Shown in pieces: positions 48,313-63,389 of a DNA stretch of 64,000 nucleotides. The first letter of the stretch is position 1. Every line of letters begins with the position of its first letter. The notes under the pieces are model-generated. The model worked only from the letters and a program-made list of their open reading frames with translations, had not been told where the DNA came from and made no database searches. Source of the DNA: a virus. Taxonomy: Duplodnaviria; Heunggongvirae; Uroviricota; Caudoviricetes. The stretch covers positions 64,001 through 128,000 of IMG/VR virus record IMGVR_UViG_3300028833_000063; one strand, 5' to 3'. The position numbers were made by a program, and so were the translations under genes.

Positions 48313-48477
48313 ATGGCTGAATTAATTATCAATCATCAGGAAATGACGGTTTTTGTCGACGACTTCAAGGGGTTTACCCCTGACTGGGATGAGATCATTC
48401 TTCCGTTTGATCGTAAAGCGGTACAAGCTCTGGAAGAGCTGGGTTATAAAATCTTTTACGGACATGATGATATTTAA
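48313..48477 (+). CDS. Small hypothetical protein
   Basis: AAGGGG RBS, ATG 48313. Confidence 0.65.
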   Translation: MAELIINHQEMTVFVDDFKGFTPDWDEIILPFDRKAVQALEELGYKIFYGHDDI

Positions 48478-48492
48478 GAAAGGGGAAGGAAC

Positions 48493-48675
48493 ATGTTTAC
48501 AGAAATGATTATCCATGATAAAAAGTCTAACGAATATTTTTGGACGAACGGACAAGAGCGGAAAGCTATTACAGAGACGCAAGCTGATGAAATTATCGGC
48601 GACTGGGAGATGCAGGGGCACTTTGCAAATTATGCAACCTATTTGAACGGCAAAATAGAAAAAGAGTGGTATTAA
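48493..48675 (+). CDS. Small hypothetical protein
   Basis: AAGGAA RBS; terminator gaagggc-ggaa-gcccttc-T8 follows. Confidence 0.7.
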   Translation: MFTEMIIHDKKSNEYFWTNGQERKAITETQADEIIGDWEMQGHFANYATYLNGKIEKEWY

Positions 48676-48845
48676 GGGAAGGGCGGAAGCCCTTCTTTTT
48701 TTTATTTATTCATTTGAACAATTGCTCAACTGTTGCACTTTAGCGTGCTAAATTAAAAAATTAGATGCAGTGCATCTAATTTTTGGCCTTGACGTATCTA
48801 TGCCCACGTTGTATAATATAGAAAATAGCAAAGGGGGTTATTGGT

Positions 48846-49034
48846 ATGTGGTATGTATTCGGAGGGCTGGCCTGGGCCGGATTGGTAGCTATGCCGTTAG
48901 TGGGTATTATTCCGGGTTTATGCATCGTAGGGGCTGGATTAGGATTAGCTGCGCTGGCAGCTGGAGAAGCTGAGCGAAAAACGCAAGCTGGAGAACGGCG
49001 CAAGCTGGCGCAATATCCGAGCTATAAATATTAA
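48846..49034 (+). CDS. Small membrane protein
   Basis: Two hydrophobic Gly/Ala/Leu segments and a basic tail; first cassette. Confidence 0.7.
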   Translation: MWYVFGGLAWAGLVAMPLVGIIPGLCIVGAGLGLAALAAGEAERKTQAGERRKLAQYPSYKY

Positions 49035-49048
49035 GGAGGATAAAAGAA

Positions 49049-49330
49049 ATGAAGAAATTTATCATGATTCTTGCTCTGGCGCTTGCTCTGTCTATTAGTG
49101 TGGCTTATGCAGATATTTACCCAACTACCGTTATTGTTCGTGATCTTGATTATCAATATGACTTAGTCATTTGTGAAGATTACAATGGAAATGAGTGGAT
49201 ATTTGAAGGGATTGATGATTGGGATATTGATGACATGATATCAATGATTATGGATGATATGGATACATCAATTATTGAAGACGATGAAATTATCATGGTT
49301 AGATATAGCGGTTATGCGGGCGGGCTTTAA
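49049..49330 (+). CDS. Secreted/exported small acidic protein
   Basis: Signal peptide MKKFIMILALALALSISVAYA/D; AGGAG RBS. Confidence 0.75.
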   Translation: MKKFIMILALALALSISVAYADIYPTTVIVRDLDYQYDLVICEDYNGNEWIFEGIDDWDIDDMISMIMDDMDTSIIEDDEIIMVRYSGYAGGL

Positions 49331-49442
49331 TGCCCGTCTTTTCTTGCTATACATTATTAGATGTAGTACATCTAAAAAAAAGACTTTACAAGTATAGCAC
49401 AAAGTGCTATACTTGTATCATCAAAGAAGGAGGTACACGGCA

Positions 49443-49610
49443 ATGGCACTGTGGCAGGAATTGATGAACAAGTGGGAAAAGGAAGACCTGGTAGATGTCG
49501 ACAACGATCCGTTTAACCCTGATGACGATCCTTGTGACGAGCTGGATGCCGATCCTTTCGATCCAGCTGGTGAGGATCCGGTCGATCTGTATGGACCGTG
49601 GTGGGAATAA
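49443..49610 (+). CDS. Very acidic small protein with DPF(N/D)P repeats
   Basis: AGGAGG RBS; DNDPFNPDDDPCDELDADPFDP. Confidence 0.7.
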   Translation: MALWQELMNKWEKEDLVDVDNDPFNPDDDPCDELDADPFDPAGEDPVDLYGPWWE

Positions 49611-49714
49611 TCCCATCACTTTTCTTTTTTAGATGTAATACATCTAATTTCTACTCTTGCGCTTTTCTCTACTCCATGTTATACTTATACCATCAAATGA
49701 AGGAGGTGCCCACC

Positions 49715-49906
49715 ATGACCCGTATTGAGAAAGCCGCCGTCGCCATCGCCGCTCGCGTTGAACGCGAAGGATATGCCTATCTGTATGAGCGCGAAGGCAT
49801 GTCTAACCGCGCGCACCATGTGATATTTGTACTAAATTGCCTCTTATACAAACGTGGATTTTATATGGTACAGTGCGGCGATCGCGTTGAGGTAAAGAGG
49901 GCATAG
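49715..49906 (+). CDS. Small hypothetical protein ending in TAG used as stop
   Basis: AGGAGGT RBS; TAG 49904-06 sits inside the terminator hairpin aagagggc-ata-gccctctt. Confidence 0.75.
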   Translation: MTRIEKAAVAIAARVEREGYAYLYEREGMSNRAHHVIFVLNCLLYKRGFYMVQCGDRVEVKRA

Positions 49907-50026
49907 CCCTCTTATTTATTTAGATATATTAGATGTAATACATCTAATAATCAGTATTGACATATAGATAAAAATGAGTATAATTATACTTGTCCGAAGG
50001 GACAAAAAAGAAAGGGGAATTTCAAA

Positions 50027-50194
50027 ATGAAAGAGTATTGTTGGATGCACAAAGAATATGGATATCTTATCCCGGAACACCTTCTGTATAATGATGCCGA
50101 AGAAATGGGTTATGATGATATTACAGACCCTTGCTCTGTAGAATATGGCAATTTCAATTTGTATTATGAAAAGACGAACATGACGGTCGAATGA
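50027..50194 (+). CDS. Small hypothetical protein
   Basis: MKEYCWMHKEYGYLIPEHLLYNDAEEMG...; absent from the supplied track; stop lies within a hairpin. Confidence 0.7.
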   Translation: MKEYCWMHKEYGYLIPEHLLYNDAEEMGYDDITDPCSVEYGNFNLYYEKTNMTVE

Positions 50195-50311
50195 CCGTCA
50201 TTCCCGAAACTAGATGTAATACATCTAATAATTGGGATTGTAATTTCATTCTCATTTTGATATAATAACATCATGAAAAGGGATTGAAAAAAATCCCGAA
50301 TTGAGAGGAGA

Positions 50312-50539
50312 ATGGATATGATACTGTTTGAAGAAACAATGTTGGATGCAAGCAAGATTTTTCTCGCCGAAATTATTGACAATTTCAATTCAAAAAAAGT
50401 ATATTGTAATTCTACTCTAATAATTGAATTTCTTCCCGAAATGCAAACATTACACGTCCGATTCAATTACAAAACTCATGAAGAAGCAATTTCAAAATTA
50501 AATCAACTCATGACTATGATCAATTTACAGAAAAAGTAA
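50312..50539 (+). CDS. Small hypothetical protein
   Basis: GAGGAG RBS; cassette-borne. Confidence 0.7.
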   Translation: MDMILFEETMLDASKIFLAEIIDNFNSKKVYCNSTLIIEFLPEMQTLHVRFNYKTHEEAISKLNQLMTMINLQKK

Positions 50540-50666
50540 TTCCCATAACGGCATCACCGATGCCGTTATTTCATTTTCAAAATTAGATGTAATACATCTA
50601 AAAAACTCTCTTGCTATTATCCCGTTTTTATGCTATACTTATACCATCAAAAGAGGGGAGGACACC

Positions 50667-50978
50667 ATGATGATTAACATTCGAACCATCCGGAAACTGA
50701 AGGAAAACGACGGGCTGACCCTGAAGGCGGGGCGTATCATTACGCACAAAACCGGGTATCAGGTAGCCGACTATGGTTACGAGCTGCGGACAGCTGAGGA
50801 AGCTATCGCCTGCGTGCGCAAGCTGCAAGGCAATTGTGGCATCTGGTACAGCGAAGGAATTTACTATATTGACCATTCCTTCCGTATCAGCACAAAAAAG
50901 GAAGCGCTTCGCATCGGGCGCGAGCACAATCAAATTTCAATTTTGAAATGGTCTAACATGACTCTTGTCTACTGCTAA
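50667..50978 (+). CDS. Hypothetical protein
   Basis: GGAGG RBS; cassette-borne. Confidence 0.75.
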   Translation: MMINIRTIRKLKENDGLTLKAGRIITHKTGYQVADYGYELRTAEEAIACVRKLQGNCGIWYSEGIYYIDHSFRISTKKEALRIGREHNQISILKWSNMTLVYC

Positions 50979-51120
50979 AGTTGTGGCCCGAAACCGGGCC
51001 ACAATTTCATTTTGTTTTTTTAGATGTAATACATCTAATAATTACTATTGCTTTTTCCCTAAAAGCATGTTATTATATACTTGTCCCAAGGGACAAGAAA
51101 AAAGAAAAGAGGTAACTATC

Positions 51121-51273
51121 ATGAAAACTATTTCCTATACCCTTGAACGGCTTGATACCCCTAACTTTCACGGATGGATTGTACTCGAAGGCTCCGAAGG
51201 CTATGACGAAGAAGTTTTTTCCTCCACTTCTCTGGAAGAAGCACTAACGTTTCTGTATGAAATGACCGCGTAA
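51121..51273 (+). CDS. Small hypothetical protein
   Basis: GAGGT RBS, start reassigned to 51121. Confidence 0.7.
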   Translation: MKTISYTLERLDTPNFHGWIVLEGSEGYDEEVFSSTSLEEALTFLYEMTA

Positions 51274-51399
51274 GCGGTTATTTCATTATCAATTTTTAGA
51301 TGTAATACATCTAATAATACCCCTTGCATTATTCCCGAAAATGTGGTAATATACAATTGTTCCAAGGGGGAACGATAAAAAGAAAGTGAGGGAAACACA

Positions 51400-51675
51400 A
51401 TGAAGGTTCGGAAAATCAATGGTCACGAGTCCGCGCAGGTGAAGGTCTATGAATACGACAACGGCGCTATGACGCTGGTAAGCTACACCACCGCCGTGAT
51501 CGGGATCAATTCGGAAGGCTGGCTTGAAGTGAGTGGGCTGTATAGCCGCACCACCATTAAGCACATCGGCTGGTTCATGCGCGAGCTGGGTTTCACCTAT
51601 CAGCTGGCAAAGGAACTGTATCTCAACAACATGCGGTTCAACATTCACACGGGTGAAATTGAAAACCGGGGTTAA
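51400..51675 (+). CDS. Hypothetical protein
   Basis: GAGGG RBS; cassette-borne. Confidence 0.75.
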   Translation: MKVRKINGHESAQVKVYEYDNGAMTLVSYTTAVIGINSEGWLEVSGLYSRTTIKHIGWFMRELGFTYQLAKELYLNNMRFNIHTGEIENRG

Positions 51676-51799
51676 CCCGGTTTTCTTTTATTCAAATAAA
51701 TTAGATGTAATACATCTAAAAACACCTCTTGACTTCTATAGGGAAAATGATATAATGATATTGTCCTCAGAGAGAGGAACAAGAAAGGAGATTGAAACA

Positions 51800-52039
51800 A
51801 TGTACATGTTCTATGCTGACCGCTCCGGATGGATTCCTATGGGAAATGATGGACAGCTTGTCGTGCCGAAGTCTATTCGTTCTCGCCGTGCCCTCCTCAA
51901 GCTGGCGGAAAGCTGGCTGGGCAATAGAGCTGGACGAGTATACCTTATGACTAGCTGGACTCAGGCCATGAGCGAGCTGGGACCACGTGCTTTTGAAGAG
52001 TACATCATGCGCAATGCCGAAGTCCTTATCAGCAGATAA
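51800..52039 (+). CDS. Small hypothetical protein
   Basis: AAGGAG RBS, start reassigned to 51800. Confidence 0.7.
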   Translation: MYMFYADRSGWIPMGNDGQLVVPKSIRSRRALLKLAESWLGNRAGRVYLMTSWTQAMSELGPRAFEEYIMRNAEVLISR

Positions 52040-52411
52040 GGACTTTCCCTTTATCCCGAAATTAGATGTAATACATCTAAAATTGACTATTGACTTCTCT
52101 TATGATATATGATATCATACTATTGTCGAAAGGGGGAAGGGATGATGAGTCCACCGGGTTAGTAGTTCCAAGGTCACGGGTTGGTACCGGACTGGCGGGA
52201 TTCATACTTATCGCAACCAACTGCCGCTGGCTTGTAATGGCAAAGCAAGCTGGTGACTTGTGCCAATTGGCGGGCTGATCACCCGCCAATTTTTTACATA
52301 TAATTATTAGATGTAATACATCTAAAATCAACTGTTGACTTTCTCTTTTCTTTATGCTATCATATAATTGTTCCAAGGGGAACGAAATAAATATGAAAGA
52401 AGGACACGAAC

Positions 52412-52651
52412 ATGACAATGACGATTGAAAAGAAACTGAGAGACTTCCATTTCTGGGGCGGTGCCGCAAGCAATGCCGCTAAGTTGACGCCCGAAGAGCT
52501 GGATACCATAGAAGAACAGCTGGAAGAGCTGAAAGACTACAATGAAGAACCCTGGAGCACTACAGAAGTCAACGATTTCTTCTGGTTCCAGTTTGAAGAT
52601 GTTTGCGAATGGTTGGGCCTTGATTATGAGGAAGTAATGGCGAGGGAGTAA
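52412..52651 (+). CDS. Small acidic hypothetical protein
   Basis: DFHFWGGAASNA...TTEVNDFFWF; cassette-borne. Confidence 0.75.
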   Translation: MTMTIEKKLRDFHFWGGAASNAAKLTPEELDTIEEQLEELKDYNEEPWSTTEVNDFFWFQFEDVCEWLGLDYEEVMARE

Positions 52652-52770
52652 TCCCTCGCTTTTATTTCATTTTGAGTTTAGATGTATTACATCTAAAGTT
52701 ATAGTTTGACATTTTTCTTAAACTATGTTATCATATACTTGTCCGAAGGGGACAGAAAGGCGGTAAGCAT

Positions 52771-52992
52771 ATGATTAAGATTACTAAAGGCATGGCGCGG
52801 AAACTGTACAATGAAGGAAAAGAAATCATGGTTCTTCCGAATCGTATCAGCACCACAAGCTCGCTGGCTGGATGGATTGAAAAGCCCAAAGACAATCCCG
52901 TTTCCTTCGAGCAGGTATGCAATACTATCTTCTATTATAACTGCTCTCCCGAAACCGGCATGAGCCTTGCCTATTATGCGAAAGAGGTGTAA
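52771..52992 (+). CDS. Small hypothetical protein
   Basis: Cassette-borne, followed by a short hydrophobic ORF at 52996..53097. Confidence 0.7.
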   Translation: MIKITKGMARKLYNEGKEIMVLPNRISTTSSLAGWIEKPKDNPVSFEQVCNTIFYYNCSPETGMSLAYYAKEV

Positions 52993-53307
52993 GCTGTGAA
53001 CTTCATCCAGGCGCTTGCACTTGACAAGCTGTGGCCTGTATACATTATTATGATATTCACCGGCATATATTTCATATGTTGGGACAAATGGGGATAATAT
53101 CCCCTTCAATTATTTAGATGTATTACATCTAAACATACTTATTGACTCTATCCCCATAATATGATATGATATCAGTGTTGAAAGGGACGGACTCAAGAGC
53201 ATGAGTCTTAAAGCGGTTAGCATAACGCAATTGTTTGATGGGCGATGACCCTATAGTAACTGAAGCGAAGCCGCCGCCCCAATCTAATTCTGAAGGGAGC
53301 AACGAAG

Positions 53308-53532
53308 ATGAACGAACTGTATGTATTGATGAGAGATGGCGAATTGATCGGAGTTTATACTACACATCAAAAAGTCATACAGCAACTGATTCTGTCCACT
53401 CAGAAAGAGCGCCTTACCCTTGGAAACTATTCTTTCGAGTTTGGGATTGAATTCTTTGATTATATCGGCCCAGAATCCGGTTGCCACTTTTTATGGGAAA
53501 TTTACGAAATTACACCCGATGAACGGGTGTAA
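53308..53532 (+). CDS. Small hypothetical protein
   Basis: AGGGAG RBS, after a ~130-nt leader. Confidence 0.7.
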   Translation: MNELYVLMRDGELIGVYTTHQKVIQQLILSTQKERLTLGNYSFEFGIEFFDYIGPESGCHFLWEIYEITPDERV

Positions 53533-53642
53533 TTTCATTTTCTATTTTTAGATGTAATACATCTAATAACCATACTTGCACTTTTTCCCGATTTGTGTTA
53601 CAATACACTTGTCCGAAGGGGACTAAGAAAGGAGAAAGAACA

Positions 53643-53966
53643 ATGGAAATGACTTATCATGTGGCGGTTCAGAGGGCAGACAGAGTAAAGCATATCATGG
53701 AAGAGATTGGTCTGGGGCAAATCATCAAAGAAAAGTATACCCGTTTCAATCTTGATCAAGCTGGACGCTGGGTATGCCTCACTGATACAGGTGTGACTAT
53801 TATTAAGAGCGAAGATAAGCAGAAGATTATCACCATGTATGTAACCACACAGAGAGAGCTGGTACTTGTATATGGTGGAGCAAAGAATGTGCCGGCGTTC
53901 CTGCGGAAAAAGGTAGATAAAAACCAGTCTAAGTATACGCAAGCTGGGAAAACCATTTGGCGCTAA
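53643..53966 (+). CDS. Hypothetical protein
   Basis: AAGGAG RBS; the TAA forms the loop of ttggcgc-taa-gcgccaa. Confidence 0.75.
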   Translation: MEMTYHVAVQRADRVKHIMEEIGLGQIIKEKYTRFNLDQAGRWVCLTDTGVTIIKSEDKQKIITMYVTTQRELVLVYGGAKNVPAFLRKKVDKNQSKYTQAGKTIWR

Positions 53967-54074
53967 GCGCCAATTTGGTTGTGCATTATTAGATGTAATA
54001 CATCTAATTCAGACTCTTGCAATTTTCCTTAATCTATGATATTCTATACTTGCCCAAAGGGGAAAGGAGAGGTT

Positions 54075-54305
54075 ATGATGAGAGACAGCAAAGAAGGAAC
54101 TTACAACGGAGAGCCTACGTTCTGCACAGTCAATGCCTATGGCGATTGCCCTTACTGTGACCAATGCGGCATTTGCCATATTGATGACCCCATCGCCGAT
54201 TGTGATGACTTTGCTATGTTCTTTGAAGATTGGGACGAATGGCTTAGGTGCGATAGTGTACCAGAAGAGGGAGAAGACGCCGATGAATTTTGGTGGGATT
54301 ATTAA
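54075..54305 (+). CDS. Small Cys-rich acidic protein
   Basis: CTVNAYGDCPYCDQCGICHIDDPIADCDDF. Confidence 0.7.
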   Translation: MMRDSKEGTYNGEPTFCTVNAYGDCPYCDQCGICHIDDPIADCDDFAMFFEDWDEWLRCDSVPEEGEDADEFWWDY

Positions 54306-54315
54306 GGAGGACAAA

Positions 54316-54585
54316 ATGGCGACTAAAATCTACATTATTACTCTTGAAGGTGAACCACAAGTTGCTTATACTGATTTCAGTAAGGTTGAAGACAGATGTT
54401 TCAAATGGTTAGATGAGTGCCGAAACGGTTGGTTTGTTAGTAGAGATTTTAACCGTTGGGTTGAAGGAAGAAACTATCCCGAGACCGAAGAGGGCGAAGA
54501 GGAGGCTTGGGAAGAATACAAGCGTGAAGCCGTGGATAATGGCAAATGGGGCGATTATGCTTGGCATGAGTGCTACCTCAAATGA
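54316..54585 (+). CDS. Small hypothetical protein
   Basis: AAGGAGG RBS, start reassigned to 54316. Confidence 0.75.
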   Translation: MATKIYIITLEGEPQVAYTDFSKVEDRCFKWLDECRNGWFVSRDFNRWVEGRNYPETEEGEEEAWEEYKREAVDNGKWGDYAWHECYLK

Positions 54586-54678
54586 GGTAGCCTTTTACTA
54601 TTAGATGTAATACATCTATTTTATCATTTGACTTTCTCTTAATTTTATTATATAATGCCAATGTAAGGAGGGGATAAA

Positions 54679-54831
54679 ATGAGTAAGAAGAAAAACCCTA
54701 AACAGAAAACATGGGTTGAAGTATTCCAGTCTGAGCGCAAAGAGTTTCCGCAAGGATATTGCGTCACTCGCATTATCCCCGATAAGCGCAAGAAGAAACC
54801 GAAGCATAAGGGAAGGGAGTTGGAGGAATGA
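54679..54831 (+). CDS. Small basic protein
   Basis: AAGGAGG RBS; MSKKKNPKQKTW...DKRKKKPKHK; absent from the supplied track. Confidence 0.7.
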   Translation: MSKKKNPKQKTWVEVFQSERKEFPQGYCVTRIIPDKRKKKPKHKGRELEE

Positions 54832-54989
54832 AATATAAATGGGTCATCATGCAAGAACTTGAAGATACTAACTGCGCGAATCCCTATTTGATTGTTGATT
54901 CAGAAGAGCGCGCCGAGGAACTTTGCTATCAGTTGGAATCCGAAAACCCCGGTTTCATCTTTTGGACTTATATGTGTGAGGAGGAATAA
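54828..54989 (+). CDS. Small hypothetical protein
   Basis: ATGA overlap with the upstream gene, GGAGG RBS. Confidence 0.6.
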   Translation: MKYKWVIMQELEDTNCANPYLIVDSEERAEELCYQLESENPGFIFWTYMCEEE

Positions 54990-54993
54990 TAAA

Positions 54994-55197
54994 ATGACTA
55001 CTCGTACTTATTACATGCCGAAGAACCGCATTTCCCTTTATATTATCAGCAACATCATTGACAAGGTTGGGTGCAGTATTGGAGATATCCGTGTTCAGCA
55101 GATTTCTAATACTATTAAAGTCCCCATTACTTGCAATGATAAAGATGTTCCTAAGGTTGAAAAAATTCTCAGACGATATGACATTCTTGGGGAGTAA
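54994..55197 (+). CDS. Small hypothetical protein
   Basis: GGAGG RBS, start reassigned to 54994. Confidence 0.65.
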   Translation: MTTRTYYMPKNRISLYIISNIIDKVGCSIGDIRVQQISNTIKVPITCNDKDVPKVEKILRRYDILGE

Positions 55198-55313
55198 TCC
55201 CCATTTCATTTCTAATATTAGATGTAATACATCTAAAATAACCGTTTGACAATATTCCCGGATTGTGTTAATATATACTTGTTCCAAGGGGAACAGAAAG
55301 AGAGGAATTGAGA

Positions 55314-55757
55314 ATGAAGATTATGTTTGACATGGACGGAACAATTGCCGACCTGTATGCCGTGGATAATTGGCTTTCTAAGCTTCAGGCTTCTGACCCT
55401 TCTCCGTATGTAGAAGCTGAAGTTATGCTGAACATGAGCATCCTTGCCCGGTATCTCAATAAGCTCCAGAAGCTCGGCTATGAAATCGGAATCATCAGCT
55501 GGACTTCCAAGAATGGTACTGAGCGATACAACCGGGCGGTTGCGGTGGCTAAGCTGAACTGGCTTCATGACCACCTGAGAAGCGTTTCCTTCGATGATAT
55601 TTACATCGTAGAGTATGGCACTCCCAAGCAGAACTTTGCGGATGAAACCGATATTCTGTTTGATGACAACGAAGAAGTCAGAAATGACTGGACAGGAAAA
55701 GCATATGAACCTTCCGAAATCCTTTCCATCCTCTCTGGGTTACTCCATCAGGAGTAA
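55314..55757 (+). CDS. HAD-superfamily phosphatase/nucleotidase-like protein
   Basis: FDMDGT motif I, SWT motif II, K, LFDD motif IV. Confidence 0.85.
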   Translation: MKIMFDMDGTIADLYAVDNWLSKLQASDPSPYVEAEVMLNMSILARYLNKLQKLGYEIGIISWTSKNGTERYNRAVAVAKLNWLHDHLRSVSFDDIYIVEYGTPKQNFADETDILFDDNEEVRNDWTGKAYEPSEILSILSGLLHQE

Positions 55758-55878
55758 CCCTATTTCATTTCTGGGAATTAGATGTATTACATCTAAAATC
55801 TCCTATTGCATTTTCCCTTTAATGTGATATAATAGCATTGTTCCAAGAGAGAGGGAACAAAAGAGAGGAGAATGAGAA

Positions 55879-56895
55879 ATGGAGTATCGTAAGGAAAAGA
55901 ATCTGCTGATTGCGTTTGACGGCGAAGTGATTAAGGCGCAGTATGATTGGAATACCAACATCTGCTATGGCGTAAAGGGAAATGAACTCAAGGGCATTTC
56001 TCCTGCTTTCCGCAATTCTATCTATGACCGCATGATTACTTCTGTCCGGTGGATTTACGGCCATTTGTCTGGGGAAATCCTGTCGCTGGCTCTGGACAGG
56101 TGGGAGCGTCTGGCAAGTGTTGGACTGTATACTTCTGACCACGATTTGCTGACTGATGAAACCTATGAGTTCCCGAATCTGAAAAAAGATTTTGTCCAGT
56201 ATTTGAAAACTAATTCTTATGGTGAACTTACCCGTTACCGTCAGGCTCTGTATCCCTATACTCAGATGCAGGAATACCAGATGCTTGACGGTAATTATAG
56301 AGTACAGGTTGATCGAATGGTTAGTCATAACTGGACACATATGCCTGTAGAATGGGCAATCAAGGCTCTGCTCAGACTCCAGTTAGAAGATTTCCAGTAC
56401 CTGCCCCGTTATTTTGATGAAACTTCACTGTTGGATGGATACTATAATATGTGCACCACAATGGGACAGGAAAATCCTGTAATTACTAAGAACTTTCTTA
56501 CCACCATTTGTAAGACTCATCATATGTATAACATTTGGAAGAAAGCACATATGAATGAAACTCTCAAACAGTACAACGACTTGAAAGAACTGTATTATGA
56601 AAACGATACTTATACCATGTATCCGCTCATCACGACCGAGCAGTTCCATGAAGAAGCAGAAGCGCAGAACAACTGTGTTGAACGGTTGTATATGGAACAG
56701 GTAGCGTATGGACGCACCCATGTTGTAGTTATCCGCAGAAAAGACTCCCCGGAAAAATCCCTTATTACTTGTGAAATCAATAATAACTGGCGTATTATCC
56801 AGTATTACGCCAAGTATAACCAGACTCCTGCCGCGCCCGAACTGGCTTTCAAAAAAGAACTTCAGTCCTATCTCAATTCTCTCTCTCAGAAGTAA
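55879..56895 (+). CDS. PcfJ-like domain protein
   Basis: C-terminus EEAEAQNNCV...IRRKDSPEKSLITCEI...IIQYYAKYN. Confidence 0.7.
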   Translation: MEYRKEKNLLIAFDGEVIKAQYDWNTNICYGVKGNELKGISPAFRNSIYDRMITSVRWIYGHLSGEILSLALDRWERLASVGLYTSDHDLLTDETYEFPNLKKDFVQYLKTNSYGELTRYRQALYPYTQMQEYQMLDGNYRVQVDRMVSHNWTHMPVEWAIKALLRLQLEDFQYLPRYFDETSLLDGYYNMCTTMGQENPVITKNFLTTICKTHHMYNIWKKAHMNETLKQYNDLKELYYENDTYTMYPLITTEQFHEEAEAQNNCVERLYMEQVAYGRTHVVVIRRKDSPEKSLITCEINNNWRIIQYYAKYNQTPAAPELAFKKELQSYLNSLSQK

Positions 56896-57054
56896 GGCGA
56901 AAGCCTTACTTCTTTTTTCCCGAAACTTATTAGATGTAATACATCTAAATCAAACACTTGCATTTTTCTAAATTTGTGATATACTATAATCGTTCCAAGG
57001 GAAGGGCGAGCGAAAGCAGACCCGAACAAGAAACAAAAAAAGTTTCAGAAACCC

Positions 57055-57422
57055 TTGACAAGCCCTACAAAATGTGATATAATCACATTGTTCCAAGGCA
57101 AGGGATGGACTTCAAAAGGAGTTGAGAACTGAAGGGTTACGGATTGCACGGGTTATCCCACCGGAGCATGAAGTCGGAGTTTCTATCACTCTTCTTCGAA
57201 AGCAATCGGGAAAAAGAGTGAAAATAATACTTGACATTCACCACAAATTGTGGTAGAATGAATATGTTCCAAGAGGATGCCTGATCAGCGAGTCAAGGCG
57301 GTTACCGACAGGCAACAGTAACAGGACGCACGGAAACAGAAACTGTACGGTTATCAGGAAAATAAATTTGCGAAAAAAATTTTCCGAAACTACTTGACAA
57401 TCCTCTTAGAACATGATATAAT
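57055..57422 (+). promoter_or_regulatory. Three tandem near-consensus promoters lacking the palindrome
   Basis: TTGACA-17-TATAAT at 57055, TTGACA-17-TAGAAT at 57231, TTGACA-17-TATAAT at 57394. Confidence 0.8.
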
Positions 57423-57475
57423 TACTATGAAAGATGAGGGGAAGGAAAACCCCATAAACCAGAAAGGAATTTATT

Positions 57476-57796
57476 ATGAAGAAATCCACTATCGAGACTC
57501 TGGTTGCCTATCTGAACGGTGAGACTGTTACCAATCTGGACGAAATCAAGGCCGAGCTGGAAGCCGAACTGACCAAGGGCAAGGAGAAAGCCGATGCGAA
57601 TCGGGCGCTCTACGAAGAAATCCACGATGCGGTGATTGAGGCCCTGACTTCCGCCACCGCTCCTGTGACCGCTCAGGAACTGGCCGATGAGACTGGCTAT
57701 GCCAAGGGCAAGATTGTCTACGGTCTGCGGAACTACTGGGCCGATGAGGTCGAGAAGATTGAGGGCAAGGTCAACTCCTACGCCCTCAAGAGGTAA
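57476..57796 (+). CDS. Winged-helix-like DNA-binding protein, paralog 1
   Basis: PVTAQELADETGYAKGKIVYGLRNYWADEVEKIEGKVNSY; similar to the genes at 61685 and 62389. Confidence 0.75.
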   Translation: MKKSTIETLVAYLNGETVTNLDEIKAELEAELTKGKEKADANRALYEEIHDAVIEALTSATAPVTAQELADETGYAKGKIVYGLRNYWADEVEKIEGKVNSYALKR

Positions 57797-57954
57797 TGCC
57801 CTAGCGCCTTCGGGCGCTTTTCTTCTATACGATCATTAGATGTATTACATCTAATTTGTATACAGTATACATATTTGACAAATAATCAAATTTATGTTAT
57901 ACTTTATACGAAATCAGGGAAGGAATACCCTATAAAACCAGAAGGAGATTTGAA

Positions 57955-58365
57955 ATGGGTAAAGAAGCAAACAAAACCAAGATTCGTGATGCTATTCTGA
58001 CCAAACTTTCCGCTTTTCTGGAAGATGAGTTTGACACTTATGTGAAAGTGGTTGCTTCGGGTGAAGTGACTATGCTGATTCCGGACGAGAATGGTGAAAA
58101 AATTTATGCAAACGTTAAAATCTCCATTCCTCGTGGCAGTCGCAATGGCGAAGGTGGTTATAATACCTATGACGGCTATGCCGAAGCTAAAGCTTATGCT
58201 CAGGAGCAGAAGGACAAGGCAGAGGAAAGAGCCGAAAAAGAGGCTAAGAAGCAGGCCAAAATTGCCGCCGATGAGAAGAAGCGCGCGGAAAAGAAAGCCC
58301 TTGCCGAAGCTAACAAGGGCTTGAAGGAACTCCGCAAGATTGATATTACTCCCAAAGGGGAGTAA
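57955..58365 (+). CDS. Hypothetical protein with Lys/Glu/Ala-rich coiled-coil tail
   Basis: AAGGAG RBS; EKEAKKQAKIAADEKKRAEKKA. Confidence 0.75.
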   Translation: MGKEANKTKIRDAILTKLSAFLEDEFDTYVKVVASGEVTMLIPDENGEKIYANVKISIPRGSRNGEGGYNTYDGYAEAKAYAQEQKDKAEERAEKEAKKQAKIAADEKKRAEKKALAEANKGLKELRKIDITPKGE

Positions 58366-58485
58366 TATCATTTTGGAAAAATTAGATGTAATACATCTAA
58401 TTATATGACTTGACCTCTCCCGAAATTCATGCTATACTATGCGTGAAAGGTGAAGGAAACACCGCAAACCAGAAAGGGAATTAAG

Positions 58486-58830
58486 ATGGCTAAGATTTCT
58501 AAGACCGTAGTGGATAAGGCTCTGCGCGATGAAGTATTCAATGATATCTTCGCAGACCCTACTGATACTGGATATACTCGCATTAACGACAGGCAGTGGG
58601 GCATTATCTTGACTGACTTGAATGGTGTCAAGCGCTATGTCCGTATCGGTGCTATCGTTGCCGAAGAGCGTGAAGACATGACTGCCGAGGAACTGATGCA
58701 GGCCGAAATTGATGCTTACAACGCCAAGCAGGCCGAAAAGGAAGCCAAGGCGCAGGCTCGCGCCGAAAAGGCGAAGAAGGATAAGGAACGTAGGGCAAAG
58801 GAAAAGGAGGAAGAAGAAAATGTTCGGTGA
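58486..58830 (+). CDS. Hypothetical protein with Lys/Glu/Ala-rich coiled-coil tail
   Basis: Start reassigned to 58486; architecture resembles the gene at 57955. Confidence 0.75.
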   Translation: MAKISKTVVDKALRDEVFNDIFADPTDTGYTRINDRQWGIILTDLNGVKRYVRIGAIVAEEREDMTAEELMQAEIDAYNAKQAEKEAKAQARAEKAKKDKERRAKEKEEEENVR

Positions 58831-59008
58831 GGAAAAATGCCCCAAGTGCGGTTTTGAAGATTACGAAATTAACGAATACTGGGATGATTTCGATGAGGAA
58901 AACGGTATTCGGGTATGGGAATGTACCTGTGAGAAGTGCCATCAAAAGTTTGATATTATCTATACATACAAATGTACAGGAATTACCGCGGAAGTTAGCG
59001 CAAGCTAA
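58820..59008 (+). CDS. Small Zn-ribbon protein
   Basis: CPKCG...CTCEKC; AGGAGG RBS. Confidence 0.7.
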   Translation: MFGEEKCPKCGFEDYEINEYWDDFDEENGIRVWECTCEKCHQKFDIIYTYKCTGITAEVSAS

Positions 59009-59158
59009 CTTCCTTTTCAAAACTTAGATGTAATACATCTAATACTTCCCCTTGCAATTTTCCATAATCCTGTTATAATATACTTGTTCCTGATGAGGAA
59101 CCCCAAATTAGGAGAAGGAAAACTCCCGTAATGAAACCCATGACAGAAAGGATTTTAT

Positions 59159-60148
59159 ATGGCTCGTAAGGAAATCCGGTATCTTGTTCTTGACTGTGAA
59201 ACCGCAACCCTTCCCTTCGCGTCTGAGATTGCAGAAGGTGACGCGGAGAAGAAGAAAAAAATTGCTATCGCTCGTCCGCTGATTTATGATATTGGTTGGA
59301 CTATCACGAACCGAAAGGGCGAAATTCTGGACAGCAAGCAATTCCTGATTGCCGAAACTTTTTCCGTTCCTGCCGTTTTCAATACTGCATATTATGCAGA
59401 AAAGCGTCCCCTGTATCTGGATATGCTCAAGCGCAAGGAAACCGAAATCAAGCCTTGGAATGAAGTTGCGGAAATCCTGCTTTCCGACCTTCGCAATGTC
59501 GATTCTGTTGGGGCTTATAATTCCATGTTTGACTTCAAGAAAGCCATTCCCTTCACCGACCTGTATATCAGGAAACTGTATTCTCCGGACTATTTCCAGT
59601 GGGAAGCAATCCAGCGGAGACTTTGTTATAAAATCGCAAATGAGCGTTATCGGAAGGATGAAGAGAAAGAGTTTGACGGCGAAAATTTCCGCTTTCGGGA
59701 CGAAGAGTTTCCGCTGTTTGACCTGTGGGGACTTGCCGCTCGTCACCTTCTGAATAATGCAACTTATAAGAAAAACTGTCTGAAGCATGAGATGCTCACC
59801 GCCAGCGGAACTTTCTTCAAGACCAGCGCCGAAGCAAGTTATCGTTATCTGCAAGATAAATATGACTTTGACGAAGCACATACGGCCCTTGACGATGCAA
59901 TCATTGAAACCTATATCCTTAGTCAGATTGCAAAGCGTCACGCCATCACTATTGGGATTATCTTCTTCCCCTTCCGGGAACTGGGGACAACCGATGAATT
60001 TGTCATGAGAAGGAAGAACCCGGATGAAGATGAAGTGAATACTGTGATTGATGCAATCGAAAAGTATCTTGAGAGCAAAGAGCAGAGTAACTATACCGCC
60101 AGACTTGAAAATATCCTTGCTCGTCTGGCGAAGTACCTCACAAAGTGA
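59159..60148 (+). CDS. DEDDh 3-prime-5-prime exonuclease family protein
   Basis: ExoI VLDCET, ExoII AYNSMFD, ExoIII EAHTALDDA. Confidence 0.88.
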   Translation: MARKEIRYLVLDCETATLPFASEIAEGDAEKKKKIAIARPLIYDIGWTITNRKGEILDSKQFLIAETFSVPAVFNTAYYAEKRPLYLDMLKRKETEIKPWNEVAEILLSDLRNVDSVGAYNSMFDFKKAIPFTDLYIRKLYSPDYFQWEAIQRRLCYKIANERYRKDEEKEFDGENFRFRDEEFPLFDLWGLAARHLLNNATYKKNCLKHEMLTASGTFFKTSAEASYRYLQDKYDFDEAHTALDDAIIETYILSQIAKRHAITIGIIFFPFRELGTTDEFVMRRKNPDEDEVNTVIDAIEKYLESKEQSNYTARLENILARLAKYLTK

Positions 60149-60255
60149 GGTACTTCTTTTTCTCCCGAAAATTAGATGTATTACATCTAACTCTTTGTAT
60201 TGACTTTCTGTCCGAATAGTAGTATACTTATACCATCGAGAGGGGGTACGGAAGA

Positions 60256-60768
60256 ATGAGTAATTACGAGGTTCGGGCTAAGAAGTTCATCGCCGAGGTT
60301 TATCCCTATATCAAAGATTGTGGTGACAATTTTGATTTTTCAGTAGCTATTCGCCGTTTCAACTATGACCACCATCGCAACGTGCAGATTGCCAGTGGTT
60401 CAACTCGTGTCGTGATGATTACCTCTGACTATGTAATTAAGGTTGACTATGATGGTTGGGGACGAGGGCAGTTTGGCTCTTGCGCAGATGAAGTGCGCAT
60501 GTACCGCAAGGCAAAGCGTGACGGATTCGCCCATCTGTTCGCCAAAGTCACGCCTGTCCGCAAGGGCTATGACCGCACGTTCTACATCATGCCCAGAATT
60601 AGGGGCATTGGAAAGGAACCGTATGATGCCACTATGTTTGTAGACGGTGATGAGTATCATTATCTGGATAACAATGTTGGTGATTTGCACCATTTCAACT
60701 ATGGTTGGAAAGACGGCCACATTGTTATGATCGACTATGCTTACAACAGCACACTCCGGCACTTCTAA
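60256..60768 (+). CDS. Minimal protein-kinase-like protein
   Basis: IASGSTRVV (Gly loop), YVIKV (Lys), ADE (helix C Glu), GDLHHFNYG (catalytic D...N), MIDYA (DFG-like). Confidence 0.7.
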   Translation: MSNYEVRAKKFIAEVYPYIKDCGDNFDFSVAIRRFNYDHHRNVQIASGSTRVVMITSDYVIKVDYDGWGRGQFGSCADEVRMYRKAKRDGFAHLFAKVTPVRKGYDRTFYIMPRIRGIGKEPYDATMFVDGDEYHYLDNNVGDLHHFNYGWKDGHIVMIDYAYNSTLRHF

Positions 60769-60912
60769 CCGGAGTTTCATTTTCGGCTATTAGATGTAAT
60801 ACATCTAACATTAAGACTTGCAATTTTCCTATAATATGATATAATAGCATTGTTCCTGAGGGGGACACAAAAAAGGAGAAGGTCACTCCACAAACCAGAA
60901 AGGATTTATGGT

Positions 60913-61269
60913 ATGGAAATGAAGCAGATGGTGTACGTGGTGATTGAGAACGGTTATGTGACTGGCGTGTGGAATGAGTATAAGGATGCCGAAAATCATG
61001 TGGGCGAAGACGGCGTGATTATTCCCGTGGTTGTCGATACCTATGGGAAGCGCGCAGGTTGCGAAACTCCCAGCGAAGTCGTAACCGCTATGGAGAAGGA
61101 ACTGCAGAATATGTATTCTTCCTACTCCACCTCTGACGATGATGAGGAAGAGGAAGAGGAAGAGGATGAGGAAGACGAGGAAGATGAGGAAGGGGATGAA
61201 GAAGATGAAGAAGGGACACTGACTGATGATGATATTATCGGTGGACTTCTGGGTATGCTCTACGACTAA
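60913..61269 (+). CDS. Protein with long poly-Asp/Glu tract
   Basis: DDDEEEEEEEDEEDEEDEEGDEEDEEG; start reassigned to 60913. Confidence 0.75.
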   Translation: MEMKQMVYVVIENGYVTGVWNEYKDAENHVGEDGVIIPVVVDTYGKRAGCETPSEVVTAMEKELQNMYSSYSTSDDDEEEEEEEDEEDEEDEEGDEEDEEGTLTDDDIIGGLLGMLYD

Positions 61270-61479
61270 TAGAGGGGCTTTGCCCCTTCTATTAGTATTA
61301 GATGTAATACATCTAACACAAGCAGTTGACTTTTTCTAAAATTGTGATATACTATAATTGTTCCAAGGGGAGAGGAAAAGAACCCAGCCCGACTTCTTCG
61401 ATACATTACTGAAGAAGTGCTAAAGAGCCGCTGTGCATAACAAACCTCACTTGCAAGTCCCCTAAGAACAAAAAAATGC

Positions 61480-61633
61480 TTGACAACAAGCAAATCCTGT
61501 GCTATAATAAGGATGTTCGAGGTAAGGGTTGAAGCTATCTTGACATGGGCTAACGTAATTGGTGGTCATTGTACTAATCCCTTCCCAAGCCTCAAAAAAA
61601 ACACTTGACACCCCACCAAAACTGTGGTATAAT
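61480..61633 (+). promoter_or_regulatory. Two tandem perfect consensus promoters lacking the palindrome
   Basis: TTGACA-17-TATAAT at 61480 and 61605, each preceded by an A-tract. Confidence 0.8.
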
Positions 61634-61684
61634 AACCACGTAAGAAAGGGAAGGACACCCTACAAACCAGAAAGGAATTTAAAA

Positions 61685-62011
61685 ATGAAGAAAGCCACTC
61701 TGATTGCCATCAAGAACGCTCTGACTGATTATGGTTACATGGATTCCGATGTTCTGTCTGAACTGAATCGGGAAATTACCAAGGGCGAAGATGCCAAGGC
61801 GAAGAACGCCGAAGCCTATGAGGGCATCCATGATTTGGTGATTGGCGTCCTGTCTGATACTCCCGCAACCTGTGCCGAAATCTTCGAGCAGATTGCGTCC
61901 GAACTGCCTGAGGGGATGGGAAAGGGCAAGGTTCAGTACGCCCTGACTCATCTGTGGCAGGATGAGATTGTGAAGATTGAGGGCAAGCCGAACACCTATC
62001 GGCGCGCTTAA
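61685..62011 (+). CDS. Winged-helix-like DNA-binding protein, paralog 2
   Basis: PATCAEIFEQIASELPEGMGKGKVQYALTHLWQDEIVKIEGKPNTY. Confidence 0.75.
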   Translation: MKKATLIAIKNALTDYGYMDSDVLSELNREITKGEDAKAKNAEAYEGIHDLVIGVLSDTPATCAEIFEQIASELPEGMGKGKVQYALTHLWQDEIVKIEGKPNTYRRA

Positions 62012-62301
62012 TCCCCAATGAAAGAGTTTTCGGGAGTACAGTTCTCTTGGGGCGAAAAACAAAACTGCTCTCTGACGGGTGTCAAAGATACCACCAGCCG
62101 CCTTCGGGCGGTATTTTTATTTCCAAATTATTAGATGTATTACATCTAATAGAAACACTTGCATTTTTCCTAAATTTGAGTATAATAATAATTGTTCCGA
62201 GGGGAGAGGAAAACGGAACGAGGCCCCTGATAAGTCATTCGGGGTAAGGCATCCTCACAGACAACCTCACTTGCAAGTCCCCAAGGAACAGAAAAAAATG
62301 C

Positions 62302-62330
62302 TTGACAAAAGCAAAAATCCATGATATAAT
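62302..62330 (+). promoter_or_regulatory. Perfect consensus promoter lacking the palindrome
   Basis: TTGACA-17-TATAAT with upstream A-tract. Confidence 0.8.
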
Positions 62331-62388
62331 AACCGCGAAAGATAAAGAGAAGGAAAACTCTTAAAAAACCAGAAAGGATACTATCGCT

Positions 62389-62715
62389 ATGAAGAACACC
62401 ACTTATGCCACTGTTTACTCCTTCCTGACTGCCAATGGTTTCGACAACGCCGAGATTCTCGCCGAGTTCGAGAAGGAAATCAACCGCAACGCCGAAGCGA
62501 AGCAGGCGAAGGAAACTCTGTACGCCGAAGCCAAGCCCATTGTTCTGGGCGCGATGGATGCCCCTGCCACGATTACCGAAATCTACGAGGCCATCGAGGA
62601 TGAACTGCCCGAGGGGTTCACGAAGGGCAATCTCCAGTATGCGGTGACTCGCCTGTGGAAGGACGAGATTGAAAAGACCGAGGGCAAGGTTAATACCTAC
62701 TCTCGCAAGGCGTAA
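62389..62715 (+). CDS. Winged-helix-like DNA-binding protein, paralog 3
   Basis: PATITEIYEAIEDELPEGFTKGNLQYAVTRLWKDEIEKTEGKVNTY. Confidence 0.75.
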   Translation: MKNTTYATVYSFLTANGFDNAEILAEFEKEINRNAEAKQAKETLYAEAKPIVLGAMDAPATITEIYEAIEDELPEGFTKGNLQYAVTRLWKDEIEKTEGKVNTYSRKA

Positions 62716-62856
62716 TAAGAAAATGCTCCCTCAGAGAGAGGGAGCATTTTCATTTTACATTTATTAGATGTATTACATCTAATTATGAGCGTTGACTTTT
62801 CCCATAAATATGATATAATAGCATTGTTCCAAGAGGAACGGAAAGGAGTTAAAAAT

Positions 62857-63069
62857 ATGAGAATACATAGATGCACCTATGATAACGATTATGTCCTTGA
62901 AGATAATACATTAACAAAGCAAGAACGTGAATTAAGTATCATTTATATTACTTATTATGGTTATTGCCGCACATGCCATCGTAAATATAGTTGGATGGAA
63001 GCATTTGTCCAGAACAGAGGCGATGATGGGTTTGAAGAAGTCAATGCAGAACCCCTTGACATTAAATAA
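62857..63069 (+). CDS. Small hypothetical protein, possible Zn-binding
   Basis: AAGGAG RBS; HRC...CRTC; start reassigned to 62857. Confidence 0.65.
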   Translation: MRIHRCTYDNDYVLEDNTLTKQERELSIIYITYYGYCRTCHRKYSWMEAFVQNRGDDGFEEVNAEPLDIK

Positions 63070-63084
63070 ATAATATGATATAAT
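63056..63084 (+). promoter_or_regulatory. Perfect consensus promoter lacking the palindrome
   Basis: TTGACA-17-TATAAT overlapping the upstream stop. Confidence 0.75.
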
Positions 63085-63116
63085 TCAACTGTTCCAAGAG
63101 GAACGGAAAGGATGAA

Positions 63117-63389
63117 ATGAAAATGACAGGGAATACAAAAATCTATATTCTTGATTATCAAAATTATCAGGGTGAGTATTTCACAGAGTATTATCTCAGC
63201 CTCAAAGCCGCACTCGAACAACTGACAGCATTGGCAAATGAAGCCAAACAGAAAGACGAATACAAGTGTAATGGTATTGATTACCTCAGCTTCTTCGATG
63301 CCGATTACAATTCTGATTCTACTTTTATCGCTTTGTCAGATGGCACAGTAAAAAACCTTTTTCAGGATTGGAAGGATGAAAATGAATAA
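63117..63389 (+). CDS. Hypothetical protein
   Basis: AAAGGA RBS; intact ORF. Confidence 0.7.
   Translation: MKMTGNTKIYILDYQNYQGEYFTEYYLSLKAALEQLTALANEAKQKDEYKCNGIDYLSFFDADYNSDSTFIALSDGTVKNLFQDWKDENE

Follow-up and report, generated by a model that had tools for sequence, protein, structure and literature searches.

The early-gene array and its repeated palindrome

The DNA analyzed here is a 64,000-nucleotide stretch (the window) comprising bases 64,001–128,000 of IMG/VR record IMGVR_UViG_3300028833_000063, a Caudoviricetes genome of 188,358 bp rated complete by CheckV. It encodes an anaerobic ribonucleotide reductase, a topoisomerase II, a DnaB-like helicase and a RecJ-like exonuclease, together with an array of small early genes whose promoters are preceded, time after time, by the palindrome TTAGATGTAWTACATCTAA. 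The products of the array are nearly all ORFans (about 30 were scanned against Pfam, and ten also against PHROGs), the exceptions being a 5'-nucleotidase-like and a PcfJ-like protein. A megablast search found no match to the array among GenBank phages. The stretch is almost fully covered in sheep gut metagenomes, and about three quarters of it in two metatranscriptomic libraries, as judged from assembled contigs; those from the RNA libraries run across the palindromes and so say nothing about transcript starts.

A first-pass annotation, made from the letters alone, had reported 27 copies of the palindrome, with 9 bp to the -35 hexamer in 25 of them and 8 bp and 20 bp in the other two. Scanning with up to three mismatches and mapping the promoters confirmed these figures: 27 copies lie at 48761–62782, against 0.05 expected from shuffles, and the gap to the TTG of the -35 is 9 bp in 25 copies, 8 bp at 54601 and 20 bp at 57836. 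The scan returned 28 matches, of which the one at 49920 was an overlap artefact and was dropped. Twenty-two copies are exact, three carry one mismatch and the first (48761) carries three symmetric-looking ones. The whole genome holds 31 copies, all at genome positions 112,761–129,898 in one 17-kb early-gene array that extends about 1.9 kb beyond the window end, and zero elsewhere. The finding is real, statistically overwhelming and conserved.

The window promoters are of sigma-A type, with TTGnnn, a spacer of 16 or 17 bp and TAnnnT, usually with the TG of an extended -10. None of the 27 palindrome-linked promoters reads TTGACA-17-TATAAT, a point already made in the first-pass annotation that held when all 27 were listed. 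Seven promoters inside the array have no palindrome (57055, 57231, 57394, 61480, 61605, 62302 and 63056); six are exactly TTGACA-17-TATAAT and the one at 57231 has TAGAAT, and each has a TG and an A-tract upstream. Palindrome-free promoters stand in tandem ahead of three winged-helix paralogs (57476–57796, 61685–62011 and 62389–62715). The 100–180-nt stretches between these tandem promoters contain no obvious open reading frame (ORF) and could be small RNAs.

A terminator-like hairpin ends 10–19 nt before the palindrome in at least 19 of the 27 copies by a simple scan, and 62 nt before the first copy; most of the remaining terminators are visible by eye. Downstream, a stable hairpin (free energy of -6 or lower) of the type UUGUCC-GAAG-GGACAA opens 17 of 30 leaders. 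Almost every unit had been described as having both elements, which is true of the terminator; the leader hairpin is common, not universal. Bacillus leaders offer an analogy in their 5' mRNA-stabilizing hairpins, and we read the phage hairpin as a similar putative stabilizer. Instead of the one to three small ORFs per cassette reported earlier, we counted one to five, about 36 in total across the window array, and two cassettes lack one altogether (52062, none called; 53114, none before the next gene).

Four further copies lie past the window end, at genome positions 128,013–129,898 (L033:13–1898). Three of them drive leftward promoters with the same 9-bp gap, and the palindrome is therefore used by promoters on either strand, with a 9-bp gap both ways. 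One past-window copy also has a TTGACA 9 bp away on its opposite side, without a -10 there. The fourth is an orphan that has no promoter and lies between two convergent terminators, an arrangement kept in three relatives (L005 10151, L008 1422 and L024 8197).

Helical phasing of the palindrome to the -35

The 45 bp flanking each site on both sides were scored for promoters with a generic sigma-A consensus, a score that a promoter passes in about 4% of random 45-position windows. Among 133 distinct sites from this genome and 24 related loci, 124 had exactly one strong promoter, on exactly one side. The gap was 8 bp at 4 sites, 9 bp at 111, 10 bp at 3, 19 bp at 2, and 20, 21, 29 and 30 bp at one each, with none at 11–18 or 22–28 bp.

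Peaks at 9, ~20, ~30 and ~40 bp recurred independently in five other complete genomes. The gaps were 8 bp (once), 9 bp (27 sites), 10 bp (4), 20 bp and 31 bp (once each) in G026; 8 bp (3), 9 bp (32) and 21 bp (1) in G040; 9 bp (20), 10 bp (3), 20 bp (4), 29 bp (2), 39 bp and 40 bp (one each) in G028; 9 bp (17), 10, 30 and 38 bp (one each), 40 bp (3) and 41 bp (1) in G036; and 8 bp (2), 9 bp (18), 10, 19 and 20 bp (one each), 23 bp (2) and 29 bp (1) in G035. Over six genomes, gaps of 9, 19–21, 29–31 and 38–41 bp recur, and 11–18 and 22–28 bp are almost empty (the two at 23 bp in G035). When genomes with three central bases (N3) were pooled, 20 of 23 gaps longer than 10 bp fell within 1 bp of 20, 30 or 40 by hand tally, compared with about 26% by chance. 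G024, which has four central bases (N4), gave gaps mainly of 7–9, 17–19 and 28–30 bp, with peaks at 8, 18 and 28–29 bp. Its peaks are thus about 1 bp lower with the longer spacer, which indicates that the centre of the site, not its edge, is positioned. One orthologous cassette has gaps of 20, 21 and 30 bp in three phages, and the insertions kept phase.

If transcripts start about 7 nt after the -10, the site centres lie near -54, -64, -74 and -85; the earlier placement of a symmetric site with almost invariant arms near -55 agrees with the first of these. Allowed positions one helical turn apart are what a class I activator would give. Because the gaps follow the turns of the helix, they point to a factor that reaches RNA polymerase from a single face of the DNA. 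By analogy, such phasing is the classic signature of a protein facing the polymerase, as is known of class I activators, which work through the enzyme's flexible alpha C-terminal domain (alpha-CTD).

Phasing this strict would not be produced by occlusion, by a roadblock or by a recombination site. The roadblock deserves weighing, since a bound protein might act as an insulator that stops read-through from the upstream cassette, leaving each cassette to be transcribed alone. The palindrome does start 10–19 nt past the terminator stem in most cassettes, and four phages share a copy without a promoter, placed exactly between convergent terminators. However, a roadblock needs no fixed helical phase to a downstream -35, and the sites at 20–40 bp are phased to the promoter, not to the terminator. 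We consider an insulator improbable.

Conservation and variation in related phages

The first-pass annotation had proposed scanning the whole genome and related phages. Besides the 31 genomic copies, an exact-pattern scan of IMG/VR found motif arrays in 24 stretches from about 15 records, and a search seeded with a neighbouring gene added 33 loci. In all, about 20 related IMG/VR phage records carry the motif, with 24–40 copies per complete or near-complete genome, always in one array. The conserved core across relatives consists of two 8-bp arms, TTAGATGT-N3-ACATCTAA, and the three bases between them vary freely, even without symmetry. The original 19-bp definition of the motif was slightly overlong. 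A full-text literature search found no description of the 15-mer motif core.

Several genomes carry fixed variants of the core. All 36 sites of G028 read TTGGATGT...ACATCCAA, with G in both arms, and all 38 sites of G024 have the N4 spacer. L051 and L061 have TTAGGTGT...ACACCTAA, L051 with G at position 5 of both arms. Elsewhere alleles coexist: at arm position 3 of G040, A or G occurs independently in the two arms (GG 14, AG 13, GA 6, AA 6), and at arm position 5 of L052 we counted 14 AA, 13 GG and 11 hybrids. Independent variation of the arms in G040 and L052 suggests a protein that reads each arm, with base pairing not required.

The same counts bear on a structural role for the palindrome, as an RNA hairpin (a second terminator or an RNase III site) or a DNA cruciform. 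A perfect inverted repeat directly after a terminator invites this idea, as do the symmetric variants of G028 (at every site) and L051. Yet about a third to half of the sites in G040 and L052 are hybrids that break a base pair, the stem is AT-rich, and no constant T-run follows it. The palindrome also lies between a terminator and the next promoter, hence is mostly untranscribed, and a structure would leave both the phasing to the -35 and the use on both strands unexplained. We find this scarcely credible.

Relatives without the motif have A/T tracts or palindromes resembling the Clostridial Rex box in the equivalent promoter slot. Exact or near-exact Rex boxes, TTGTTAANNNNTTAACAA, occur at L047 9474 and 10969, L048 16083 and 18240, L075 678 and 10384, and G015 13000 and 13115. 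Where a promoter was called (L047, L048 and L050), 18–20 bp separate the Rex-like box from the -35 downstream of it, so that the centre of the box is one helical turn farther out than the TTAGATGT site. One of these Rex-box promoters is the ortholog of the window promoter at 56958. In the genome studied here the TTGTTAANNNNTTAACAA box is absent at one mismatch or fewer, Rex-like boxes being confined to motif-free relatives. We rejected the identification of the palindrome itself as a Rex operator: the TTAGATGT arms are unrelated to the Rex consensus, and the genome has no such box.

In a tree of eight conserved proteins, the motif-free G015 and G023 stand apart from each other, G023 being sister to the motif-bearing G028, and the distant G035 and G036 carry the motif. 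Given this patchiness, the motif is old, and it was either lost or replaced more than once or its arrays were exchanged between lineages.

A second palindrome, TGTATACAGTATACA, lies at window 57855–57869, inside the 20-bp gap of cassette 57836. It recurs upstream of promoters in relatives without the main motif (L047 11823, 14874 and 17168; L048 14362).

A predicted operator and the sign of regulation

A regulon built on a dimer site is supported by the invariant arms around a freely varying centre, by the independent variation of half-sites in relatives and by the strict phasing, and we predict with considerable confidence that the palindrome is a protein operator acting on these promoters. 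A sequence-specific dimer would bind TTAGATGT-N3-ACATCTAA through two 8-bp half-sites whose centres are about one helical turn apart. It would sit on one face of the helix just upstream of some 30 sigma-A-type early promoters, centred near -54 or one to three turns farther, and would touch RNA polymerase, most likely its alpha-CTD. Such contact would co-regulate the whole host-takeover array of small ORFan genes. In the reading that we favour, the dimer would boost or activate transcription as a class I activator, like P2 Ogr at -55; the same geometry could repress by over-stabilizing polymerase in the manner of phi29 p4. The site with its symmetry, phasing, conservation and variants is observed directly, as are the cassette rearrangements; we infer protein binding, polymerase contact and the sign of regulation from sequence patterns, and for the complete statement, that a dimeric protein binds this operator, contacts polymerase and activates the early array, we would claim slightly less than an even chance. 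The symmetric dimer site and the regulon of about 30 promoters proposed in the first-pass annotation are thus upheld, but its dimeric activator is only one option, as a repressor fits the geometry equally well.

The position and phasing of the site fit activation, for which P2 Ogr is a precedent, and two further observations favour it. Motif-free relatives, like the motif-free promoters within arrays, have A/T-tract, UP-like sequence in the same slot, which suggests a stimulatory function. In addition, perfect consensus promoters account for 25 of 74 (34%) motif-free in-array promoters in seven genomes, compared with 30 of 220 (14%) motif-linked ones; the corresponding numbers for this genome are 6 of 13 and 0 of 29.

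Other observations weigh against it. Judged by their sequence, near-consensus extended -10 promoters should fire unaided, which makes a strict need for an activator doubtful. The phased slot of sister phages holds boxes like those of the repressor Rex, and these favour repression as much as activation. An immediate-early activator cannot be a newly made phage protein and would have to be of host origin or injected; yet no host-like regulon of the motif appeared in 185,579 species genomes (exact 19-mer) or in 400 sampled genomes of one bacterial class (N3 motif). Phyletic profiling found no binding protein. Lastly, the promoter-less copy between convergent terminators is conserved in four phages.

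Under the opposite sign, the palindrome would be a repressor operator through which the early array as a whole is shut off, either by an early or middle protein of the phage or by a sensor of host state. From its upstream position the repressor would keep polymerase held at strong promoters, as p4 does at phi29 A2c, reportedly by way of the alpha subunit, or as a Rex-type protein might. Motif-linked core promoters are intrinsically strong: pooled over seven genomes, 78% have TTGAC[AT], 78% a 17-bp spacer and 78% the TG. Moreover, coordinated shut-off is the only way in which a freshly synthesized phage protein could control early genes. Rex is a known repressor, and the Rex-box-like palindromes of sister phages lie on the same helical face, 18–20 bp from the -35. 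The Clostridial Rex motif is documented (PMC5367854, PMC8457756), and host Spo0A sites control phi29 early promoters (PMC2731898). However, most repressor operators overlap the core promoter, which these palindromes never do; stimulatory UP-like A/T tracts fill the slot in motif-free relatives; and the lower frequency of perfect consensus among motif-linked promoters than among their motif-free neighbours is the usual sign of reliance on an activator. We regard repression as possible but rather unlikely.

Cassette gain, loss and shuffling

Cassette order, which the first-pass annotation had suggested comparing, is not collinear among the relatives G040, G026, G028 and G024. Compared with G040, the backbone is collinear, with many cassettes found in only one of the two genomes. 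Three cassettes of G026 occur in reverse order without inversion, and the g249/g250 pair is placed differently in G040 and G026. Cassette order is scrambled in G028 and G024, with flanking structural genes syntenic. A 314-bp module (52994–53307), made up of a bare palindrome, promoter and leader, is absent from G040 and, in the DNA as well as the RNA libraries, from a co-occurring strain. Modules cross-match at 73–89% identity over ~80–130 bp.

The pattern recalls the promoter-early stem-loop (PeSL) elements of T4-type phages: a unit of terminator and host-type early promoter is repeated through a variable region, with indels and replacements at the repeated motif, although the repeat itself makes the precise breakpoints hard to place. 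A terminator, the operator, a promoter and a 5' stabilizer hairpin would together form a repeated unit of about 100 bp, and this unit would provide, as a by-product, homology for cassette gain, loss and reshuffling. What emerges is a probable operator next to the promoter that obeys an unusually clean rule of helical phase and is built into a PeSL-like shuffling module.

The first-pass annotation had further proposed that the palindrome anchors recombination, as in an integron. The shuffling it implied is borne out by the indels, permutations, translocation and strain-variable module. An integron-like mechanism, in which the palindrome is an attC-like crossover site for a site-specific recombinase or nuclease, found no support. 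Such a site could account for the variable content and order of cassettes (the reversal of three in G026, the g249/g250 move and the scrambling in G028 and G024), for a promoter module present in one strain and absent in another, and for the many homology breakpoints at the palindrome. But BLAST would report breakpoints at an invariant 19-mer in fast-evolving DNA anyway, and helical phasing to the -35 would be meaningless for a crossover site. Contig joints at repeats are poor evidence of circles, being short-sided and of mixed-strain origin. We found no integrase or recombinase domain among about 30 array proteins and the product of an upstream 224-amino-acid gene (Pfam, and PHROGs for ten), and each cassette has its own promoter and terminator, with no common promoter, so that the integron analogy fails on its defining features. 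Repeats of the ~100-bp module at 73–89% identity suffice for ordinary homologous exchange, as with PeSLs (PMC2839356, PMC4122927). A dedicated recombination site is, in our view, highly improbable; homologous exchange between repeated terminator/promoter modules, the PeSL analogy also raised in the first-pass annotation, fits better.

Search for the binding protein

Phyletic profiling of 368 called ORFs compared five motif-bearing with three apparently motif-free complete genomes, and was redone as six versus two once the N4-spaced motif had been found in G024; a second profile compared 18 motif-bearing with 18 motif-free records. None of the 368 ORFs combined presence in all motif-bearing genomes with absence from those lacking the motif.

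The best correlate, g222 (53643–53966, + strand, 107 amino acids), occurred in 14 of 18 motif-bearing and 0 of 18 motif-free records. For an early ORFan its conservation is unusually high, with at least 76% identity over the best 120 of 427 clusters. However, it was missing from the complete motif-bearing genomes G024, G035 and G036, even by profile search, and its structural model showed no recognizable DNA-binding fold and only faint resemblances to RelE, BrnT and colicin D. As a candidate binder, g222 is a lead only.

The three winged-helix paralogs (106–108 amino acids, all on the + strand) have a modelled structure of two helices plus a winged helix, with a predicted local distance difference test (pLDDT) score of 93, which supports that fold, and weak PadR/Fur/ArsR-like matches. 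They are probably not the binder: orthologs with 60–92% identity occur in the motif-free records L047 and L048, the family matches all 18 motif-free records, and it is absent from the motif-bearing G035 and G036. Several Ogr-like small zinc-finger proteins are present, none of which tracks the motif. No Rex N-terminal domain was found in five records searched for a phage-encoded Rex.

With no phage gene tracking the motif perfectly, the binder may be a host protein. A host factor fits the patchiness of the motif, and the Rex-like boxes suggest that this phage group uses host-type boxes. The exact 19-mer gave nine single matches in 185,579 species genomes, chance level by our estimate, and none had the promoter arrangement. 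In 400 sampled genomes of one bacterial class, the N3 motif was not seen beyond the seed genome, in a search of low power given that host sites are usually degenerate; the power of the 19-mer scan was low too. We know of no transcription-factor consensus that matches the TTAGATGT motif. The only bacterial match in a promoter-like place was in a high-GC contig of a Clostridiales metagenome-assembled genome, SFFS01000044.1 (L039 846–864), where one exact 19-mer stands downstream of a LacI-type regulator gene and a TctC-like transporter gene follows it after about 40 bp; the match could be due to chance.

Speculatively, the palindrome could be the box of a new host transcription factor, by which recoded-clade rumen phages gate takeover on the physiological state of the host. 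The phased slot would then take up different host sensors in different lineages, be it this factor, Rex or plain UP elements. Such a host box would explain why no phage gene tracks the motif, why it occurs in distant but not in closer phages, and why arm and N4 variants are fixed by genome; even so, we consider it an unlikely solution. If the binder does come from the host, these lytic phages would be reading host state at about 30 promoters at once; if it is a phage protein, it would define a new regulator family.

Comparison with known systems

In T4-type phages, PeSLs combine a terminator with a promoter in one composite motif, and homologous exchange has been proposed for them (Arbiol et al. 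2010, PMC2839356; Comeau et al. 2014, PMC4122927). Like them, the unit described here is repeated, spans about 100 bp, combines a terminator hairpin with a host-type early promoter and flanks small ORFan genes in a hyperplastic region, and relatives differ by indels and swaps at cassette boundaries. Unlike PeSLs, which have not been described with a regulator site, it has an extra invariant palindromic operator between terminator and promoter, phased to the -35. Most modules here also have a 5' leader hairpin, and the host is Firmicute-like, with Shine-Dalgarno sites and TGn extended -10 elements. We treat the resemblance as analogy, not homology. With this module, the idea of gene shuffling bounded by promoters would reach from T4-like coliphages, the PeSL case, to Firmicute-type phages.

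The late promoters of P2 and P4 carry inverted repeats for Ogr/Delta, centred at about -55, where a small phage protein acts through the alpha subunit (PMC3152322). Both systems thus place an inverted repeat near -55 on a family of phage promoters. P2 late promoters have a poor -35 and number only ~4–6, whereas the present array has about 30 early promoters close to consensus; the arms are unrelated in sequence, and no Ogr-like zinc-finger gene tracks the motif. As in the present array, phi29 p4 has a dimer site upstream of the -35, at promoters A3 and A2c, where it reportedly contacts the alpha-CTD and activates or represses according to core promoter strength. The p4 sites are few, are centred further upstream and work with p6, whereas here one type of site serves an entire 30-promoter regulon. 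A further parallel is a palindromic site for a pre-existing host dimer at phage early promoters, exemplified by the Spo0A boxes in phi29 and Nf early promoters (PMC2731898) and by the exact Rex-consensus boxes of the sister phages; for the TTAGATGT motif, by contrast, the searches of bacterial genomes revealed no regulon.

The motif provides a sequence-defined handle on the timing of early host takeover in abundant uncultured rumen phages. The slot comes in hundreds of natural variants, including half-site changes, N3 versus N4, one to four helical turns, and Rex-like or UP-like replacement, which together amount to a ready-made mutational scan for studies of promoter architecture.

Individual cassettes of the window array

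All 27 modules are on the + strand, and promoters are given below as -35, spacer length and -10. Module 1 (48761–48817) has the degenerate site TTAGATGCAGTGCATCTAA and TTGACG-17-TATAAT ahead of ORFs 48846–49034 and 49049–49330. Module 2 (49357–49413; centre base G, TTTACA-17-TATACT) precedes ORF 49443–49610, and module 3 (49629–49685; TTGCGC-17-TATACT) precedes ORF 49715–49906. In module 4 (49929–49984), TTGACA-16-TATAAT and a 5' hairpin lead to ORF 50027–50194. The site of module 5 (50210–50266) begins with C and is followed by TTGTAA-17-TATAAT and ORF 50318–50539; module 6 (50583–50639) has TTGCTA-17-TATACT and ORF 50667–50978. The next three modules have 5' hairpins: module 7 (51020–51076) with TTGCTT-17-TATTAT and ORF 51121–51273, module 8 (51296–51352) with TTGCAT-17-TAATAT and ORF 51400–51675, and module 9 (51701–51756) with TTGACT-16-TATAAT and ORF 51806–52039. 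The gap is 9 bp in all nine.

TTGACT-17-TATCAT is the promoter of both module 10 (52062–52118), which has no convincing ORF ahead of module 11, and module 11 itself (52307–52363), which has a 5' hairpin and ORF 52412–52651. The leader of cassette 52062–52306 contains an ATG followed six codons later by two TAG codons. Module 12 (52678–52734) has TTGACA-17-TATCAT, a 5' hairpin and ORF 52771–52992, and module 13 (53114–53170), with TTGACT-17-TATGAT, lies within the strain-variable segment 52994–53307. Module 14 (53548–53604; TTGCAC-17-TACAAT, 5' hairpin) drives g222, and module 15 (53989–54045; TTGCAA-17-TATTCT) drives ORFs 54075–54305 and 54316–54585. The gap is again 9 bp from module 10 to module 15. 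Module 16 (54601–54656) has the 8-bp gap, a site ending in T, TTGACT-17-TATAAT and three ORFs within 54679–55197.

Modules 17 to 19 return to the 9-bp gap. The first of them (55218–55274; TTGACA-17-TAATAT, 5' hairpin) precedes the 5'-nucleotidase-like gene at 55314–55757 and the second (55778–55833; TTGCAT-16-TATAAT, 5' hairpin) the PcfJ-like gene at 55879–56895; module 19 (56930–56985; TTGCAT-16-TATACT) is followed by the palindrome-free promoters 57055, 57231 and 57394 and the first winged-helix gene. Module 20 (57836–57903) has the 20-bp gap, one extra helical turn that includes TGTATACAGTATACA, then TTGACA-17-TATACT and ORF 57955–58365.

The gap is 9 bp in the remaining modules. Module 21 (58382–58438; TTGACC-17-TATACT) serves ORFs 58486–58830 and 58820–59008, module 22 (59024–59079; TTGCAA-16-TATAAT, 5' hairpin) ORF 59159–60148, module 23 (60172–60228; TTGACT-17-TATACT) ORF 60256–60768, and module 24 (60790–60845; TTGCAA-16-TATAAT, 5' hairpin) ORF 60913–61269. 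Two modules lie ahead of the other winged-helix genes: module 25 (61298–61353; TTGACT-16-TATACT), followed by promoters 61480 and 61605 and the gene at 61685–62011, and module 26 (62131–62186; TTGCAT-16-TATAAT), followed by promoter 62302 and the gene at 62389–62715. The last, module 27 (62764–62819; TTGACT-16-TATAAT, 5' hairpin), has five small ORFs within 62857–63997.

A shared leader, aaaccagaaagga, directly precedes the start codon of six genes (window 57440–57475, 57920–57954, 58455–58485, 60880–60912, 61650–61684 and 62350–62388), only three of which are paralogs. Rfam and tRNA scans of the window were empty. The G+C content of the array is 41–45% (window 46000–64000), compared with 34–41% for most of the upstream part (1–46000), and the sign of the GC skew flips at about 46–48 kb of the window, where leftward late genes and the rightward array diverge. 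About 45 more near-consensus, palindrome-free promoters, TTGACW-17-TGnTATAAT with a conserved 'aaattt' in the spacer, occur at genome positions 82–71,000 and 130,000–186,000 (for example, window 4160). They drive AT-rich replication and nucleotide-metabolism genes and form a second class, possibly with different timing.

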